A stretch of 64,000 bases of DNA from an uncultured Methanosarcinaceae archaeon (lineage in GTDB: Archaea; Halobacteriota; Methanosarcinia; Methanosarcinales; Methanosarcinaceae): assembly GCA_963833425.1 (NCBI GenBank), contig CAWHXP010000003.1, positions 64,001 through 128,000 on the forward strand, in the 5' to 3' direction. Positions 15,698 to 32,140 of this stretch are shown here, one piece after another. The notes beneath the pieces were generated by a model that worked only from the letters and a program-made list of their open reading frames with translations, was not told the origin of the DNA and made no database searches. Made by a program: the position numbers and the translations under genes. Position 1 is the first letter of the stretch; every line of letters begins with the position of its first letter.

Positions 15698-16465
15698 ATG
15701 GAAAAGGAAAGGAGTTACAGTGTGCAGAAAATTTTAAAAAATAACATAAGTAAGGCTGACATTACAAGAATTAATCTCAACGAGAGCGACTTTAAGAGAT
15801 TTAATCTTATAGGGATCGACCTTAGAGAAGCTAACCTAAAAGAATCCAACTTTGAAGGGGTTAATCTTATGGGAGCCAAACTAGAAGGCTCTAACCTTGA
15901 AGGAGCTAATTTTAGAGAAGCTAACCTTAAATGGGCTAACCTTAGAAAAGCTAACCTTGAAGGAGCTAACCTTGAAAGAGCCAATCTTATAGAAGTTGAC
16001 CTTAGAGAAGCTAATCTTATGGACACTAATCTCGAAGGAGCTAATCTTGAAGGAGCTAACCTTATAAAAACTAATTTCTATGGAGCTGACCTTCAAAAAG
16101 CTAATCTTGAAAAAGCTAATCTTGAAAAAGCTAATCTTGAAGGGACTAACCTTGTAGAAGCTAACCTTGAAAAAGCTAACCTTATGGGAGCTAATCTTCA
16201 GTGGGTTTACCTTAAAGGAGTTAACCTCAAAGAAGCAGACCTTCAAGAAGCTAACCTTAAAGACGCTTACCTTAAAGAAGTTTACCTTGAGAAGGCTAAT
16301 CTTAAGAAGGCTAACCTTGAATCAGCTTTCCTTGGAGAAGCTTACGGACTATCACTTGACCAACTTTCTAAAGTGAAAACACTTTACGATACTAAATTAG
16401 ACGAAAAACTTCTCATACAATTAAAAGAGAAATATCCTGTCCTTTTTGAAGAAACTAACGGATGA
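15698..16465 (+). CDS. Pentapeptide repeat protein
   Basis: Long run of A(N/D)Lxx repeats and a C-terminal LSKVKTLYDTKLDE..KEKYP cap. Confidence 0.95.
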   Translation: MEKERSYSVQKILKNNISKADITRINLNESDFKRFNLIGIDLREANLKESNFEGVNLMGAKLEGSNLEGANFREANLKWANLRKANLEGANLERANLIEVDLREANLMDTNLEGANLEGANLIKTNFYGADLQKANLEKANLEKANLEGTNLVEANLEKANLMGANLQWVYLKGVNLKEADLQEANLKDAYLKEVYLEKANLKKANLESAFLGEAYGLSLDQLSKVKTLYDTKLDEKLLIQLKEKYPVLFEETNG

Positions 16466-17792: not shown

Positions 17793-18083
17793 TTAAAACG
17801 ATACGGTACAAATTGCAAACAAATAGCCATATATTTTGTGTCGCGCAACGTTGACCGTGGCTGCAAGTATAACAGATGCTGCCATAGTGCTGTCCCTATC
17901 ACAAGTATGGTGGTGATAGGTGTGTTTTATGATTTCAACATTTTCTACTTCAACTACTATTTTTATTCTCTCTAGCAACAACAGGTTCTGCACTTACTTC
18001 TGCAGCTGTCCTGATACCACAAAAAGAACTGCCAGCAAACTAGCCAGTGCTGCTGTCATTCTAATAGATGATTGCCCCAACAT
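17793..18083 (-). pseudogene. Small secreted protein (signal peptide MLGQSSIRMTAALASLLAVLFVVS), decayed
   Basis: SD plus ATG at 18083; paralogous 5' end at 50831; frameshift after the signal peptide. Confidence 0.55.
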
Positions 18084-18729
18084 TTATTTCACACCTTTAT
18101 GGCTAAAATTAATAATTATAAAGGAATTTGTTTTTAGTAACTATTCAAACTATCAAAAATTGATTGGCTGAGATCTATTCTATTGCGCCAAGATATTCGA
18201 TGAACGAATTACTTACTGGGCTTAATTCGTTATTTTAAATTAATTACACAAAAAATAGTTTCTAAAGAAAACTTATTTTCCTCTTTTCATCGGACATTAT
18301 CGGATAATTAGATTTTCAAAGTTAAAAACACTTTCTATATTCTGATCGCTGAACGAGCACATAAAAACATAGGAAAATTTAATATTATATTACTAGAACT
18401 TCCACTCTGGCTTTTTTATTTCCGGATTTTTATGATGTAACTTAAGGTTTAACCTTCTATTTTTTGGATCAATATTTAAATGTTAATCCTTGAATTATGC
18501 ACAGCTTTTGCTATAAAAATCTATGTATCTATGAAACAATCGGTGTGTCTTCTGAAAGATTAAAATTCGAAAATTTCCTTTCTGATCATTCTAAATAGTA
18601 AATATTTATTTCAGCAGCTTTTAGTATCAAAGAGTGATCTCAATGAATACTTAGAGGAGTTTTATGGATCTAGAAACTCTCGCTCATCGAGCATCAGATA
18701 TTCTCTTCCCCGCCTTGCCTTTCATTTAT

Positions 18730-20883: not shown

Positions 20884-21103
20884 TTGATTAATATATTTAG
20901 CTTCATTAATATCAGAGTAGTTTAGATACTTAGAGATGAAACATAAAAAATATCAAAACATTTTTCATGGTTATTTCTCAAACCTTTTTGTGGGATTACT
21001 GAAAAATTAAGTTCCTGATTTAGTTATTCATATTTTGAATTTTGTTTAAGTACTCGAGTATTATTTTTTTCTGATATTTTCTATTTATGATTATTCTCCA
21101 GTC

Positions 21104-21253
21104 GGTTCCGTTGCAGAAAATCAGAACATTTTATAAAATCGCTGAAAATCTTCACAATCAGGTAATTTGAGTGATCAAATTGGGATTAAAATATCATTTA
21201 AAGGAAATAATAATGACCTCAAAGTAAAGAAAAATTATTTTTGCAACAGAACC
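21104..21253. mobile_element. IS6-derived MITE (150 bp)
   Basis: TIRs GGTTCCGTTGCA ... TGCAACAGAACC, matching the IS6 end at 1706. Confidence 0.85.
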
Positions 21254-21449
21254 ATATATCTTGTTTTAAACTTTGCATATAGGATGGAGATTGCTGACAA
21301 CATCATAGAACAGATCCAAGCACGATGTGTTCATTTATTAAATATTATGCAAAATAATATTCTCTAATCAGTTTGCAGAAAAAAATCGCATCATTTAATC
21401 TGGCTCTTAAAGAACCATCTTAGATTAACACTATTAAAAATGCAATTGA

Positions 21450-21670: not shown

Positions 21671-22160
21671 CAGAAATATCAAATTCAGATCTTCATAGCT
21701 ATATGCAAAGCTTTTTCGTCTAAACGTTCCAGGTTAAGACTTGTTTGAGTAAACATAAACAAAAAAACCACTCGAAACACAAATATGCCAAAAAAATTTA
21801 TAAGTGTAAAGTAACTAAAATAATTGATGCATAGTTCCATTACATGTAAGTAATGACAGCAACGAAGAACTTAGATCCTGGCTTACGGTGTCCATAGCAT
21901 ATGGGAAGAACAAAACAGTCCATAGCCAGTACTGACTGCATTCCTGCTATATTAGAACTTGTCGATGTCCATGTTTTTTACCTGGGTATCCAAAATATTT
22001 ACACTTATAAGCCCACAAAAGTTTGCTAGGGATATTGCTGAGGGACATCAGGCAACCCAAATCTCAAGACCATTTAATGTGAATATTACCCAGTTTAATT
22101 AGCACTATATAGTATATATGCAGAAGATATATAATACATCAAATCTAGTTATTATTTAAA

Positions 22161-22265
22161 GGTATTCTAGTACCTAGCATTCTACCTTCTCTCGGGCTGC
22201 AGGATCTCTTCACCTGCAGCTAACAAGATCAACTTTTTTGACAAACAAGATCAACCTGGTCACAT
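22161..22265 (+). ncRNA. Putative structured small RNA, copy 1 of 3
   Basis: BRE/TATA (CAGAAG ATATATAA, TATA at 22127) upstream; hairpins GGTA-TTCTAG-TACC and GCTGCAGG-loop-CCTGCAGC; ACAAGATCAAC twice. Confidence 0.6.
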
Positions 22266-22914
22266 AAAGTAAAAAACAAAAAAGTTGAATTTTGATCTTT
22301 TAATCGATACTACTATTGTTTGAAACTTCCAATTTTTGTGGATAATAGGTTCCAACGGATGGAAAAGATCCGAAAGTCTTAGATCCTTAATTGCTCAATC
22401 TTGTGACAGTATGTCTAATTTAAGACTATTGTACCACAGCAGACCACGTTCACGGAGCTTTGTAGCATTTTTAATTTTCTCCATATCCAAGCTCATTCAT
22501 ATACAGGAGTTTTGTGTTGAATTTGCGACAAATCAAGAGACATCTTCTACAGTGGAATTAGAGTCGTTATTTTAATATTTTTTCATACTCTGTTCAAAGA
22601 TTCATTAAAATATATATAATCTTATTCAGTTTAATTAAGTATAGGGCAAGTTTATGATTTAAGTCAAAAATGAATGATTATAGGATTATGAAAGGCATTT
22701 TCTTGAGTTTGGTAAGGATCTTAATCCTATTGACAATCCAAAACATTCAGTAGGGACTTTGATCAAGCCTTTTAGTGATTTGCGGAGAAAGGCTCCATCC
22801 GTTATATTTCATGAGATAAGGACCACACAACTGATATATTAATTAGTTTATGGAAGTACAATTTAGGATATATACAAAACCTATATAATAGATTGATTTG
22901 AGTTCTAATTTATA

Positions 22915-23015
22915 GGTTCTCCCGTAGCTCCAACCCAGCCATTCTACCGGACTTCAGGCATTGATCACCTGCATTTCACAAGATCAACTTTTTGACACTA
23001 AGACGAGCCGGTTTA
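22915..23015 (+). ncRNA. Putative structured small RNA, copy 2 of 3 (most diverged)
   Basis: CTATATAA at 22881 with the same 34-nt spacing; CAGG..TCACCTGCA and ACAAGATCAACTTTTTGACA conserved. Confidence 0.55.
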
Positions 23016-24581
23016 ACTAAGCTAATTAAATAAAGTAGAAGAAGTCTAATTTTGGAATTTGCGCATATAATCGACCAATATTATATCTTCGTCATCATAT
23101 AAGCTTGCGTAATTTTACTGTGAATATTGCAGTAGGACATAAGACAACCCGAAGTCAGAACAACATAACTTTAATCCTAATTAGTTTCAGTTAGAGATAT
23201 ATGTGCACAAAAGTATATAATAAATTAGATTTAGTAATATTTTATAATTTTTCAAATATCTTTATATCGACATCCGATCGGACTAGGCATTTCCACCAGC
23301 AGACCAAAATATAAATTTTTGGAGATATAAGATCAGCTTGATAACTTAAATTAATAAAAAAACTAAGTAATTGATGGCTTTCGAAGATGTCGTGGTTGTT
23401 ATTTGCATGCTTGATGACAAAATTAAGACGAAGCGAACAGTACATTTTGTAGTTAAACTCATTATTGGCAGTTTATTTTTGGGCATCTTGATAGGCCTAT
23501 TTATTTTTTTTCACTTAGTGAACTGGACTTAATATAATACAGTGTAATTAAATAAGTTCAAAGCAATGATAAAATGAAAATCAGCCCACATAAATTTGCT
23601 TAATTAATCGTAGTGAAGGCAAGATTGAGATTCCTTTGGAGAGCTGAATAATTGGCTTCTCCAGAAATATAAATTTTCAATTCACGAACGCCTTAAGATT
23701 TGAAATTTCACAGAAAAATTGAAATACTACCAATCTGCTCAAATAAGTTAAATCACGATCATAAACAGAAAAAACCTAAAAAGTTGTCATCATTGTTTAT
23801 AAGATTAAATACGTAAGTTTTATAATATTTAGATATATCTATGAATATATAGAATATATACAATAAATATATATTAAATCACATTTATTTGATATATCAT
23901 GATACATAATGCACTACGACATAAATCCTGGAAAAAAAAATGTTTAGTGTAGTTATGTATCTGAAAATAACAGATTATCAAGGAGTTTATGATAAATAAC
24001 CCATACGCTGCAGATATCCCTAACTTGCAGATTGCAATGATGTTTTGAAAAAAAATGTCGTTTAAAAACCTTGTCAGCAGTTCTAAAACCTTTGGGTTAT
24101 CTGGGCATCATCATAAAAATAAAATGAGATTTCTCATATCGCTGATGGACCATAGTCAATCTCCTTACCAACTAATTCTTTTTGAGCATTGTAGAAATAT
24201 ACTATATCTTCAGTGCTAATCAAGACAAATGAGTACTTATCGCAATTTATGTGTCTGTGGTGCACTGGGTGTTGTAGACAAATTACAACTTTTACAACAG
24301 CTATTATTGATGTTTGGGTTAGGCTCTAAATAAAAAATGAACGATCTTAAGGCTCTATACGGCCTTTTATTGAGTTGAATAGGGGATCCTAACAAAGGAA
24401 CAACCAAAAAACCCATTTTAGGGGCTGAGATCAAGTCATTTATTGATTGACTGGGAAACGCACTCGTTTGTTATAATTCATGAATAGGACTGCATGATTA
24501 GTAGACTAATTAGTTTAAGTTAGTGCTATTTAGGGTATATCCAAAAGATATATAATAAATTAAATCTAATTATAATTTATA

Positions 24582-24686
24582 GGTATTCCCGTACCTTGCA
24601 GTAGACTTTCCGGCTGGCTGCAGGTATCTTGTCACCTGCAGCTTACAAGATCAACTTTTAGACATACAAGATCAACCGGATCACAT
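24582..24686 (+). ncRNA. Putative structured small RNA, copy 3 of 3
   Basis: CAAAAG ATATATAA (TATA at 24548); GGTA-TTCCCG-TACC; GCTGCAGG-loop-CCTGCAGC; ACAAGATCAAC twice. Confidence 0.6.
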
Positions 24687-26090
24687 TAATTAATAATAAG
24701 AAAAAAATTAGTCTCAAGCAAGACCAGTAATATGTTAAACGGCCTAAAGCTATGATTTAATGATGTAAAAATAAATTAAATTTAAAAAGACAATGAATAT
24801 TCTGTTAGTAGTCTGAGTTGAGCTTCATTGTCAGTTACATAAGTTAGTGATATCCATAGCAATAATAAAAGTAGCGCCAATAACAAGTTAAGCAGGTATT
24901 AGTACAAAATATGGCTCCAGCATCTATATTTAACTATACTATCTCAAATCCGCTTTCCAATTTCTGGCAAATCAACCAGGTTCCAAAGAGCAATTAATTA
25001 ATTGATACATAACTGGCATCAAAATGTACTAAATGCACTTGTGTACTTTATTAATACTTTTTTGGTATTTTCTAGCCTCAATCGATCTTTGATTCAGTTG
25101 ATTCATATTCCTAGTTTTGTTTAGAGTATTATATAATTATCTTTTTATGTGTTTATTTATGATCGTGATTTAGGTTAATTAATTCACGGTTCCATGAGTT
25201 CCATATCGCTACTAGTCCCAAAAACTCCATGATCGTAGATCATCAATATTTCCTTACACACACCACCATAGTCATGGTCAGGTTGGTATGATGGATGTAA
25301 TTAGCCAATCATGAAATTGATATCGATCTGGCGGCTCTTCTTGGCATCGTTGAAATTTACTTTATTTTGCTTCTAAGAAGCATTATCAAAATTTTTAAAG
25401 TTTCTATTTAAATTTATAAACTTGTCATAGAATGTTTATCTAATAGTTTTTTTATTAATTTTAAAGCTTCTATTAATTACAGGTATACACTAATTAAAAC
25501 ATCGTATTTGTGCCAACTTGTAGGCAATAATTCTGAATAAGTCTGTATGAGTTTACCCCATGTTCAACATTCGGCTATCCGTATATCTAAATTTGAAAAT
25601 CTACCACATAGTCACATGGTAAAAGCCTTTCAATAAAAAACGATAATCAACTTATATTATATAAACATTATTATCTAAATAGTTAAGAAATTCATATTTT
25701 ACTCATTTAAATTATTTTTTTACCTATTTCTATTTTAAAAACATGAGCATTATCTAAAGTTAAATAAAAAAACCCACCAATATTTGATCGAGAAAAAATT
25801 GAGTGTTAAACTATGATTAAGGGATATACAAAACCAAAAGTGCAACCAAAAAAATAAGAAAATAAATTTGTGGATGCCCATGAAAAATTTTCAATTTAGA
25901 CTAAAAATAATAAAATTTTAGAGCAGTTATCATAATACAAACTAAATTGATCAAATAATATACTTACTTAAAACTATTGCAAGTAAGCTGCAAACGAAAT
26001 AGATAGTCATCAGGAGCCATACCAAATTTGTATACTATAGACTTAAAAAGTACAGAAATGTGGCGAGATAATACGCCAACATTTATACAT

Positions 26091-31505: not shown

Positions 31506-32140
31506 GCTACTGTTTTCCTCCATCATAAGGTGTAATATTAAACGAATAGTATGGAAAGAACAACTTCATTCAATATATTTAGAGAATTATAATAAACCTC
31601 AGAAGATCTCTATAACCCCCCAATTTTAACAAATTGCTTATATAGACTTTATAAACAACTAGCCAAAAATTGTGGTATATCGAAATCGCTCTGATTCTCA
31701 CGAGTCATTTGTGCACATTTATAGACATATGACTAAATTAATGAGTTTATCTAAATTCTCTTCATTTTTATCCATCACATATACGGTTTCCAATTTAATA
31801 GTTTTCCTTTGTCAAGTTTAACTTCATAATATTTTGCTTAATCATTTATTAACATTCCCTATTTTTCTGCTTGACATAAGATTTTTGCTCTTTACAGTTC
31901 CTAAGATTCGCTTTTCTTCTTTGTCCCCAATATTCTTTAATTTATCACTTAAAATTTTCATTTTTTATTTTTTTGTATTTCTGAAGCCGTTCCTGTATTT
32001 TTACTTTTCCTTTTTTTCGAAATTAATCTCATCTTCACTTCCCCAGTCAACACCCCCAGTTTAATATTCATATTTCAATATAATTCAGATTCCCATTTCA
32101 ATATCATTCTCATATCTTTCCGGAAGAATTGTATCGACAA

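Follow-up and report, generated by a model that had tools for sequence, protein, structure and literature searches.

Four paralogous units in a Methanosarcinaceae archaeon belong to a Methanosarcina-specific repeat family of putative leader-derived RNAs

The window, a 64,000-nucleotide stretch of DNA from an uncultured Methanosarcinaceae archaeon, contains between 21.1 and 25.7 kb an island that is a mosaic of repeated modules. The island is non-syntenic in five sister genomes, whereas the ribosomal-protein genes adjoining it are syntenic there, at 88–91%. Within the island lie four copies of one element, all on the forward strand. A covariance model of the element (R1), run with filters off over all 64 kb, matches the four sites at 124, 105.7, 83.7, and 76.0 bits, and these are far beyond chance because the fifth-best match in the window reaches only 18 bits (E 0.31). 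The original prediction had listed three units in a region devoid of credible genes; it had passed over the degenerate fourth copy (76.0 bits) and a 52-residue open reading frame that begins 17 nt after it.

Unit 1 consists of a shared promoter region (22060–22159), with the TATA box ATATATAA at 22127–22134, and a putatively transcribed part (22160–22275; 105.7 bits). The latter holds two hairpins, P1 (22161–22164/22171–22174) and P2 (22196–22203/22213–22220, arms GCTGCAGG/CCTGCAGC), followed by exact 12-nt direct repeats of AACAAGATCAAC at 22222–22233 and 22244–22255 that flank a T6 tract (22234–22239). Unit 2 has its promoter region at 22814–22913 (TATA box CTATATAA at 22881–22888) and its putatively transcribed part at 22914–23028 (83.7 bits); its P2 is weakened (ACTTCAGG / CCTGCATT), its second motif copy is degenerate, and a T5 tract lies at 22989–22993. 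Unit 3, the best member of the family (24581–24696; 124 bits), follows a promoter region at 24481–24580 with the TATA box ATATATAA at 24548–24555. Its P1 (24582–24585/24592–24595) precedes a P2 (24617–24625/24634–24642) with 100% complementary arms, GCTGCAGGT/ACCTGCAGC, and exact 12-nt direct repeats of TACAAGATCAAC (24644–24655 and 24665–24676) enclose a T4 tract (24656–24659). Unit 4 (23246–23357) has mostly lost its hairpins and is preceded by a promoter region at 23140–23245 with TATATAA at 23214–23220.

The first GG of units 1, 2, and 3 falls at 22161, 22915, and 24582, and the TATA box begins exactly 34 nt upstream in each, as had been described. The 5′ hairpins likewise exist, although two had been assigned to the wrong copies: GGTA-TTCCCG-TACC belongs to the unit at 24582 and GGTT-CTCCCGT-AGCT to that at 22915. 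The second hairpin and the direct repeats are evident in units 1 and 3 and weak or degenerate in unit 2, again as described. The flanks, thought to be unrelated, are in fact repeated. About 100 nt upstream, including the promoter, are common to all four copies. A further module of ~180–230 nt, termed U, precedes units 2 and 3 (approximately 22640–22815 and 24330–24480, as delimited by upstream-flank alignment and repeat depth) and about half of the copies in the genome. Another module, termed B, spans approximately 23030–23170, from unit 2 to the promoter of unit 4, and is akin to the sequence following the leader at Methanosarcina loci of low copy number, with which it has a hairpin TACTG..CAGTA in common.

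The element is a family of ~50 copies per genome in an amplified clade of six genomes, and it was detected solely in Methanosarcina. The present genome has 45 covariance-model matches and 54 nhmmer hits, and its five sisters have 55, 28, 52, 40, and 58 model matches (G019, G055, G064, G065, and G067). At least one copy occurs in 25 of the 59 genomes of the genus, 19 of them outside the clade with 1–4 copies each. An order-wide draw matched 3 of 151 genomes, all Methanosarcina, with none among 36 genomes of other Methanosarcinaceae genera or 102 of other families. All 17 loci with the exact pattern in named records come from Methanosarcina or Methanosarcinaceae. A scan of 2.9 million viral contigs for the exact pattern yielded no copy, and none turned up among plasmid records. 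Comparison with Rfam 15 gave no match at gathering thresholds across the whole window; with E up to 5, the stretch 22000–24900 yielded only a chance miRNA hit (23630–23674; 24 bits against a gathering threshold of 90). A literature search found no paper matching the element. Across 121 distinct copies from the six genomes, mean pairwise identity is 61% and the hairpins are kept. Copies occur dispersed and in tandem arrays, where just tens to ~125 nt lie between the end of one unit and the following unit's 130-nt promoter region.

The common layout places P1 at the very 5′ end, followed by a linker of ~21 nt, P2 with its nearly invariant GCUGCAG stem, a single-stranded (C)ACAAGAUCAAC motif, a U4–6 tract, and a less conserved 3′ part of ~35 nt. 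Single copies fold modestly better than shuffled sequences (z = −2.53, +0.32, −2.85, and −0.37 for units 1, 2, 3, and 4), with unit 2 no better than its shuffles. The family as a whole is more informative. In 29 copies from this genome, P1 and P2 positions are 82.5% paired, against 28–54% when the partners are slid, and no shuffle out of 500 attained the observed covariation score. The 121 distinct copies are 83.2% paired and carry 98 double-sided changes where 41.7 are expected (0 of 500 shuffles), figures to be read with the bias of alignment A4 toward well-kept copies and the modeled structure, since it draws on the top 30 loci of each genome and was fitted to the model. The copies are related paralogs, so the shuffle controls also overstate significance. 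Compensatory pairs are found at 3–15 (GC 75, AU 18), 5–13 (AU 40, UA 19), and 46–88 (GC 87, AU 14). P1 and P2 are helices supported by compensatory changes, and the claim of a conserved scaffold is borne out for both; other proposed helices are unsupported or weakly supported. Stem positions show GU/UG in 95 cases and AC/CA in 63, an excess that mildly favors the promoter strand as the RNA.

Conservation of the element is uneven. The mismatch rate within subfamilies is lowest in the P2 stems (0.051), followed by the motif (0.084), the linker (0.118), and the 3′ part (0.161), with 0.15–0.18 in the loops. A shared protein partner is possible because the CUGCAG stem and ACAAGAUCAAC are conserved in sequence, beyond what pairing demands, and a recognition site for such a shared factor is the most likely role of the near-invariant stem and motif. 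Some copies may nevertheless be drifting, because in an array orthologous between this genome and G064 the units (0.84–0.92) are conserved no better than the spacers (0.87–0.90), and across three genomes the stems of this array differ more than the rest (0.209 versus 0.17). Other arrays, too, are orthologous between genomes. In units 1–3 the P2 loop can pair with an ACAAGAU motif; family-wide this pairing lacks covariation (58.2% paired versus 59.2% in shuffles), and neither a ligand-binding architecture nor a conserved alternative pairing was found. A riboswitch or attenuator leader was rejected on these grounds and because what lies downstream is either a mixed set of genes or no gene.

Each copy brings its own promoter. 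Within the conserved ~100 nt upstream, a TATA box stands at a constant spacing from the first GG, accompanied by an A-rich BRE-like stretch, and the upstream consensus of the family terminates in caAAAAatATATaataAAT. A strict TATA motif lies 28–40 nt upstream in 74 of 120 copies, 51 of them at one fixed distance. Judged by sequence, the units are putative archaeal promoter-driven transcription units with a predicted start, which agrees with the original description of a paralogous family of RNA-like units with individual archaeal-type promoters. With ~50 near-identical promoters per genome, the family implies a common transcriptional input. The original description had overlooked that the repeat includes the promoter DNA, that the element is a leader in other Methanosarcina, and that a small open reading frame follows 17 of the 121 copies.

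The U-tract sits ~75–80 nt from the start of the unit; of 120 copies, 108 carry at least four T there and 91 at least five. No bacterial-type hairpin-plus-U terminator was found at the units. Homology ends just past the tract in 18 of 54 own-genome hits. The 35 nt beyond it are conserved in 29 of the 54, which a plain terminator model leaves unexplained. According to a study of Methanococcus maripaludis (PMC8716108), transcription units with one U4 tract have a median termination efficacy of 43%; efficacy rises with more tracts, and non-coding RNAs behave alike. A single U4–6 tract of the kind seen here would then be a medium-strength archaeal terminator.

What lies beyond the units varies. 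A small open reading frame follows at a fixed 15–18 nt in 17 of 121 copies, another small open reading frame is linked in 5, and a pentapeptide gene in 4, while 61 have no ATG-initiated frame of at least 30 residues starting within 300 nt. The nearest downstream frame of at least 100 residues runs in the same direction in 29 copies and in the opposite one in 35, while 22 have none; these counts cover the 86 evaluable copies, after setting aside 35 that lie too close to the end of their locus. In the window, unit 4 is the 5′ leader of the 52-residue frame (23374–23532, forward strand). Its product carries a hydrophobic stretch at the C terminus and belongs to a multi-copy, mostly intact family of small proteins related to DUF1269; it is a truncated derivative, matching residues 14–59 of a full-length DUF1269 protein that this genome also encodes (43% identity, E 5e-11, BLASTP). 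A small frame encoding a C-terminal hydrophobic stretch behind a structured leader recalls type I toxin–antitoxin loci; the frame here is a DUF1269 fragment. In genomes of low copy number, this promoter and core precede pentapeptide-repeat genes (loci L067, L077, L080, and L084), a zinc-ribbon small open reading frame (L081), and an NHL-repeat gene (L083). Of 21 low-copy homologs, just 7 have the U-tract. In the amplified clade, the element has the U-tract and is mostly stand-alone. The difference in U-tract frequency looks like a gain tied to standing alone.

The explanation we favor, with moderate confidence, is that the window holds four paralogs of a Methanosarcina-specific cassette, each probably its own short transcription unit, derived from a leader and amplified as DNA. 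The archaeal RNA polymerase would start at or just before the GG. Some transcripts would end at the U-tract as an RNA of ~80 nt, and the remainder would read through, in about one-seventh of the copies into the DUF1269-derived frame 15–18 nt further on. The cassette would have originated upstream of pentapeptide-repeat and small zinc-ribbon genes, as their promoter and 5′ leader, a position retained in the low-copy species, mostly without the U-tract. Amplification at the DNA level, promoter included, would have produced the tandem arrays and dispersed copies of the one six-genome clade, and units 1–3 would be copies without the frame.

The original prediction instead took the units for guide or antisense RNAs that act in trans, with a copy-specific segment of 16–17 nt directing a shared protein, for example to translation-initiation regions. 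An own promoter for each unit, the many copies lacking a linked frame, the conserved scaffold, an almost fixed linker length, and a linker less conserved than everything but the loops all agree with such a design. But the segment said to differ in every copy has a consensus and only a handful of subfamily types across the 121 distinct members; it matches its consensus at 0.66–0.69, against 0.70–0.74 for the P1 stems and 3′ part. The "variable segment" is subfamily variation in a moderately conserved linker and no guide. A search of the genome (80% complete) with the three segments, on both strands and with up to two mismatches, returned the segments themselves, paralogs (C4:19248; C3:600354 and C4:13209), and sites at chance level (3, 2, and 5 sites versus shuffle means of 2.7, 0.0, and 1.2). 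Nor does the argument from CATTCTACC, a 9-mer in units 1 and 2 whose complement GGTAGAATG resembles a translation start, hold up, as the 9-mer falls at non-homologous alignment positions. Inspection of the sequence reveals neither C/D nor H/ACA boxes, with no TGATGA or CTGA apparent in units 1 and 3. C/D box, H/ACA, and crRNA-like guides were rejected, given that P2 is a plain hairpin without an internal pocket and that complementary sites do not exceed chance. The guide layout and its targeting are the least probable of the readings considered.

Two other readings set the RNA aside. The functional entity may have been a small gene cassette comprising promoter, leader, and small open reading frame (a mini-DUF1269, pentapeptide-repeat, or other gene), duplicated repeatedly in a lineage full of decaying DNA and leaving units 1–3 as dead remnants whose RNA, if any, has no role. 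The frames and pentapeptide genes still linked to some copies, unit 4 as a linked copy with degenerate hairpins, the poor conservation of orthologous units relative to spacers, and the non-syntenic mosaic island would all follow from decay. Position-specific conservation is nonetheless equal in linked and ORF-less copies, stems and motif vary two- to threefold less within subfamilies than loops and 3′ part, the U-tract is far commoner in amplified copies than in ancestral-type leaders, and ORF-less units recur in tandem in several genomes. We consider wholesale decay somewhat unlikely. Alternatively, the GCTGCAGG-N8–10-CCTGCAGC palindrome and the phased repeats of ACAAGATCAAC, 21–22 bp or two helical turns apart, could be protein-binding or recombination sites of a small non-autonomous mobile or recombining unit, with the RNA incidental. 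The stem keeps almost the same sequence throughout instead of covarying freely (UA in 118 of 121 copies, CG in 106, GC in 105–108), a stretch containing AGATCA is found near −105, +62, and +84 and gives the unit two similar ends, copies occupy variable regions as well as arrays, and in one case paralogous gene loci lose homology exactly at the 3′ end of a unit. Yet no terminal inverted repeats were found in three units with their flanks, orientation and spacing relative to the promoter are constant, and G–U pairs are tolerated (UG in 24 of 121 copies at one pair). The one candidate filled/empty pair examined shows replacement by non-homologous DNA with neither a clean excision boundary nor a target duplication, and the lack of matches in viral contigs and plasmid records also weighs against this reading. 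A purely DNA-level element seems quite improbable.

Known systems resemble the cassette in part. The single-copy sRNA41, sRNA154, and sRNA162 of Methanosarcina mazei are ~100 nt long and have their own TATA/BRE promoters; they have genus, size, and promoter type in common with the element. The element differs in its ~50 copies per genome, tandem arrays, and shared promoter DNA, none of which is known for those RNAs, as well as in its occurrence in under half of the genus genomes surveyed and its lack of an Rfam match. Correia elements of Neisseria and the BOX and RUP elements of pneumococci are promoter-carrying, MITE-like intergenic repeats with terminal inverted repeats and target duplications. 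Like the present element, they are ~100–250 bp long, number tens of copies, and would fold as RNA when transcribed; unlike them, the element has an archaeal TATA/BRE promoter and covarying hairpins, and neither terminal inverted repeats nor, in the one filled/empty comparison, a clean boundary were found. SreA and SreB of Listeria are small RNAs that arise from riboswitch 5′ leaders by premature termination. The leader position in low-copy species and the terminator-like U-tract of the amplified family are similar, but the element has no recognizable ligand-binding architecture, and its downstream genes are heterogeneous and mostly absent. CsrB and RsmZ titrate a protein through many copies of an invariant short motif on hairpins. 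A repeated, hairpin-displayed motif would suit titration of a sequence-specific factor here as well, an analogy of function, with the repetition spread over ~50 separate genes and not within one RNA.

Carried further, the leader-derived cassette may have become a stand-alone small-RNA gene through its U-tract, and the ~50 co-regulated copies in one peat and soil Methanosarcina clade might jointly regulate by dosage, for instance through titration of a GCUGCAG/ACAAGAUCAAC-binding factor that also controls the leader-bearing mRNAs. This extension is speculative, and we regard it as unlikely; to our knowledge, no larger paralogous family of regulatory RNAs has been described in an archaeon.

If most copies are relics, the element is an ordinary repeat family, of value chiefly for annotation. 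If the units are transcribed as proposed, they make up a hitherto undescribed archaeal RNA family, restricted to one genus and with hairpins that clearly covary. Its history would be traceable from a 5′ leader in most Methanosarcina to a terminator-bearing unit multiplied ~50-fold in one clade. The family would then offer a concrete case of the birth of archaeal small RNAs from leaders and of single U-tracts as partial terminators, and it bears on the make-up of the large share of non-coding DNA in these methanogen genomes.

The three units of the window are real and are members of a previously undescribed family that is restricted to Methanosarcina. The original prediction placed their GG starts at 22161, 22915, and 24582 (units 1, 2, and 3, + strand), each with a TATA octamer (ATATATAA or CTATATAA) starting exactly 34 nt earlier, and reading of the sequence bears this out. 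The parts follow in the order it proposed: a 5′ hairpin (P1) and a linker come first, then a GCTGCAGG-loop-CCTGCAGC hairpin (P2) that is weaker in unit 2, and finally two copies of the motif ACAAGATCAAC separated by a T-run, which in units 1 and 3 are exact 12-nt repeats. The flanks, taken at first to be unshared, are homologous across units for ~100 nt upstream when the three are aligned with their surroundings, and the consensus of this upstream part terminates in the form caAAAAatATATaataAAT. The count of three has to be extended: all three units hold, and both the alignment and the covariance model (R1) add a degenerate fourth copy near 23246 (unit 4, 23246–23357, + strand). R1, built from genome-wide copies and run on the whole window without filters, assigns the four sites 124, 105.7, 83.7, and 76.0 bits, with the next match at 18 bits. 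The proposed comparison with Rfam returns no known family, for the whole window at gathering thresholds or for the region at E-values up to 5, and the window holds no tRNA or tmRNA genes.

The region had also been thought to lack credible genes, and it contains a 52-aa open reading frame (ORF) at 23374–23532 on the + strand, starting 17 nt past unit 4. On the right are minus-strand genes for ribosomal proteins L1, L10/P0, and P1, among them the Pfam families Ribosomal_60s and RL10P_insert, archaeal/eukaryotic-type families that fit an archaeon. On the left are a hexapeptide transferase and a TPR protein. Three soil-metagenome DNA runs each share a small fraction of the words of the stretch (0.06–0.07), and no RNA run was listed for it.

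Three search methods agree on the size of the family in the window’s own assembly (4.07 Mb in 21 contigs, with 80% completeness), with 40 matches by BLAST-type search, 54 hits by a profile made from the three units (39 of them above 60 bits), and 45 matches by R1. Across the genus, R1 finds a match in 25 of 59 genomes; 34 have none, 19 have one to four, and six are expanded, namely the window’s own (45) and the sister genomes G019 (55), G055 (28), G064 (52), G065 (40), and G067 (58). Single-genome searches at E-values up to 1e-4 give 50 for G064 and 55 for G067. An order-wide draw matched 3 of 151 genomes, all Methanosarcina; among the genomes searched in this sample with strict filters, none of 36 from other genera of the family and none of 102 from other families matched. 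In named records an exact degenerate pattern hits 17 loci, every one from Methanosarcina or Methanosarcinaceae, including Methanosarcina spelaei MC-15, Methanosarcina sp. T3, and Methanosarcina sp. Ant1. The pattern has no match among 2.9 million viral contigs, and plasmid records gave no BLAST match. No description of the family was found in Rfam 15 or, at the level of titles and abstracts, in the literature, where Methanosarcina sRNA tables could still list a low-copy homolog.

The promoter and the two hairpins are recurrent features of the family. A strict TATA motif lies 28–40 nt upstream of model position 1 in 74 of 120 copies, at one distance in 51 of the 74. The promoter part alone is covered by 7 of the 54 own-genome profile hits, some ahead of ordinary genes, and the window has a promoter-only look-alike (ATATAGAATATATACAATAAATATATATTAAAT) at 23847–23879 with no unit behind it. 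When 29 own-genome copies are aligned, P1 and P2 are 82.5% paired versus 28–54% with the 3′ partners slid, and P2 is independently predicted by RNAalifold, which gave almost no structure on a first rough alignment. In 121 distinct copies from the six expanded genomes, an alignment fitted to the model and limited to the best 30 loci of each genome, pairing in the two hairpins is 83.2% and double-sided changes number 98 against 41.7 expected. The covariation score was reached by 0 of 500 shuffles in each alignment, a test that overstates significance because the sequences are paralogs. Covarying pairs in the larger alignment include 3–15 (GC 75, AU 18), 5–13 (AU 40, UA 19), and 46–88 (GC 87, AU 14). 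The stems hold 95 G-U pairs versus 63 A-C mismatches, an excess that mildly favours the promoter strand.

Additional pairings were considered. A GAUC/GAUC helix, a local hairpin around the T-run, and a long-range CCGG helix enclosing P2 were tested and are unsupported. Pairing of the P2 loop with ACAAGAU reaches 6–7 bp in units 2 and 3, yet family-wide covariation is absent. In unit 3 (24626–24651) and unit 1 (22203–22230), a palindrome joins the ACAAGAUC motif to the loop and 3′ strand of P2 (AUCUUGU/ACAAGAU, with 7 bp in unit 3). The resulting hairpin would form in place of P2 and lie 4 nt ahead of the U-tract; it is strong in only 8 of 119 copies. A 3′ hairpin is weakly supported (57% paired versus 23–37% slid, with 6 of 500 shuffles reaching its score).

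The original prediction saw guide or antisense RNAs in the units, with the linker as a segment unique to each copy. Family members share a linker consensus, roughly CUUCAAGUAGACUUUCUAUCGG, and the window holds members of different subfamilies. Linkers match their consensus at 0.66–0.69, P1 stems and the 3′ part at 0.70–0.74, and P2 stems at 0.85–0.88. Linker columns share high mutual information among themselves and yield no new pairs, a pattern that marks a small number of subfamily types and not base pairs or unique sequences. A search of the genome with the three quoted segments, identical or complementary with up to two mismatches, returned only the units, their paralogs, and chance-level numbers. 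The CATTCTACC shared by units 1 and 2, once a hint of pairing with translation-initiation regions, occupies non-homologous alignment positions. Given the subfamily-type linker, the absence of targets above chance, and the non-homologous CATTCTACC, the guide-RNA reading is therefore unsupported.

The U-tract distinguishes amplified copies from low-copy homologs. At the expected place, 108 of 120 amplified copies have at least four consecutive T and 91 of 120 at least five, versus only 7 of 21 low-copy homologs with such a tract, and homology is lost just past it in 18 of 54 own-genome hits. A scan for sigma-70 promoters and bacterial terminators, a method without application to archaea, stayed at chance level and found no bacterial-type terminators at the units, as expected for an archaeon. 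Passages on transcript ends in a Term-seq study of Methanococcus maripaludis describe U4 tracts ahead of 3′ ends, median termination efficacies of 30%, 43%, 52%, and 55% with 0, 1, 2, and >2 tracts, and similar behaviour for non-coding RNAs (PMC8716108). By analogy with these efficacies, a single U4–6 tract is plausible as a partial terminator, and the predicted products would be an RNA of ~80 nt ending at the U-tract plus read-through.

Low-copy genomes carry this promoter and core upstream of genes, namely those for pentapeptide-repeat proteins (loci L067, L077, L080, and L084), a 55-aa zinc-ribbon ORF with weak Pfam zinc-ribbon matches (L081), and an NHL-repeat protein (L083). Homology between low-copy and amplified forms continues as far as P2 and CACAAGAUCAA, then stops. 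By eye, the pentapeptide-repeat leaders of L077, L080, and L067 carry CUACUGUC right after the core, complementary to GACAGUAG ~50–60 nt downstream, a hint that the putative ancestral form had a larger, structured 5′ UTR.

Downstream contexts are more varied in the amplified clade. Among 121 distinct copies, a 52–69-aa ORF beginning MAFDD follows 15–18 nt downstream in 17, a 41–44-aa ORF is next in 5, and pentapeptide genes are next in 4; 61 lack any ATG ORF of 30 aa or more that starts in the next 300 nt. The MAFDD ORF, with 4–13 mostly uninterrupted copies in each of the six expanded genomes, has no above-threshold match in Pfam or NCBIfam. It aligns to residues 14–59 of a full-length DUF1269 protein of the own genome (43% identity, E 5e-11), itself a match to PF06897 (E 5e-37), and by this alignment the 52-aa ORF at 23374–23532 derives from a DUF1269 membrane protein by truncation. 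The 68–69-aa variants beside other copies share, by eye, the C-terminal WTEDKA-ERLNKF stretch of the DUF1269 protein, which suggests an internal deletion. In 86 evaluable copies (35 more lay too close to the locus end), the nearest downstream ORF of at least 100 aa is co-oriented in 29, opposed in 35, and absent in 22. This orientation is random, so the units do not act like promoters for large genes nearby.

A multi-copy gene for an OYE-like flavin oxidoreductase (379 aa) has a unit upstream in several genomes (L019 on contig C8 of the own assembly, L159, L160, and L163), and among its own-genome loci homology ends exactly at the 3′ end of the unit. The unit as driver of this gene was dropped: ~180 nt upstream of the gene are conserved independently, unit and gene lie anywhere from 0 to ~460 nt apart in different genomes, and paralogs at 85–89% identity lack a unit.

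Units often form tandem arrays on one strand, with another shared module between them. In the window this “U” module (~180–230 nt) lies directly upstream of the promoters of units 2 and 3, at ~22640–22815 and ~24330–24480. It is common to about half of the own-genome copies, fills the space between units in tandem arrays, and has no apparent conserved ORF. The island at 21.1–25.7 kb is a mosaic of repeated modules, and synteny with five sister genomes (88–91% identity) ends at about 25737. Other arrays are orthologous between genomes; the synteny comparisons gave no usable empty site. Elsewhere in the window, 15800–16300 is a very high-copy repeat unrelated to the units (median depth of 109–185 own-genome BLAST hits per 100-nt bin), and further repeated modules lie at 18000–18300 (~22 hits), 21100–21300 (~25), and 31600–31700 (~36).

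The main rival explanation is that most copies, units 1–3 included, are relics of small gene cassettes, and evidence for constraint on each copy is mixed. Mean pairwise identity among the 121 copies is 61%, and the hairpins are nonetheless kept. Comparison inside 10 subfamilies (58 sequences) gives mismatch rates of 0.051 for P2 stems, 0.084 for both P1 stems and the motif, 0.118 for the linker, 0.15–0.18 for loops, and 0.161 for the 3′ part, and the conservation profile is the same in ORF-less and ORF-linked copies. Between G064 and the own genome, units of an orthologous three-unit array are 0.84–0.92 identical and spacers 0.87–0.90, so that the units are not better conserved; at a second orthologous locus a single unit equals its flank (0.93 each), and across three genomes the stems of the three-unit array differ more than the remainder (0.209 versus 0.17). 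Some copies are probably drifting. A reading of the units at the level of DNA, or as mobile elements, is less probable but may apply; no terminal inverted repeats turned up in three units with their flanks, and the one candidate filled/empty pair gave no clean insertion allele.

The best-supported reading remains that of a self-contained cassette, a promoter with a short structured RNA. The 5′ leader of a gene would have been its source, with gain of the U-tract and then amplification as DNA within one clade as the later steps. Conservation extends beyond pairing to the sequence itself in the CUGCAG core of P2 (UA 118 of 121, CG 106, GC 105–108), the T-run, and the motif ACAAGAUCAAC. Invariance of both stem and motif suggests a putative sequence-specific partner shared by the family.
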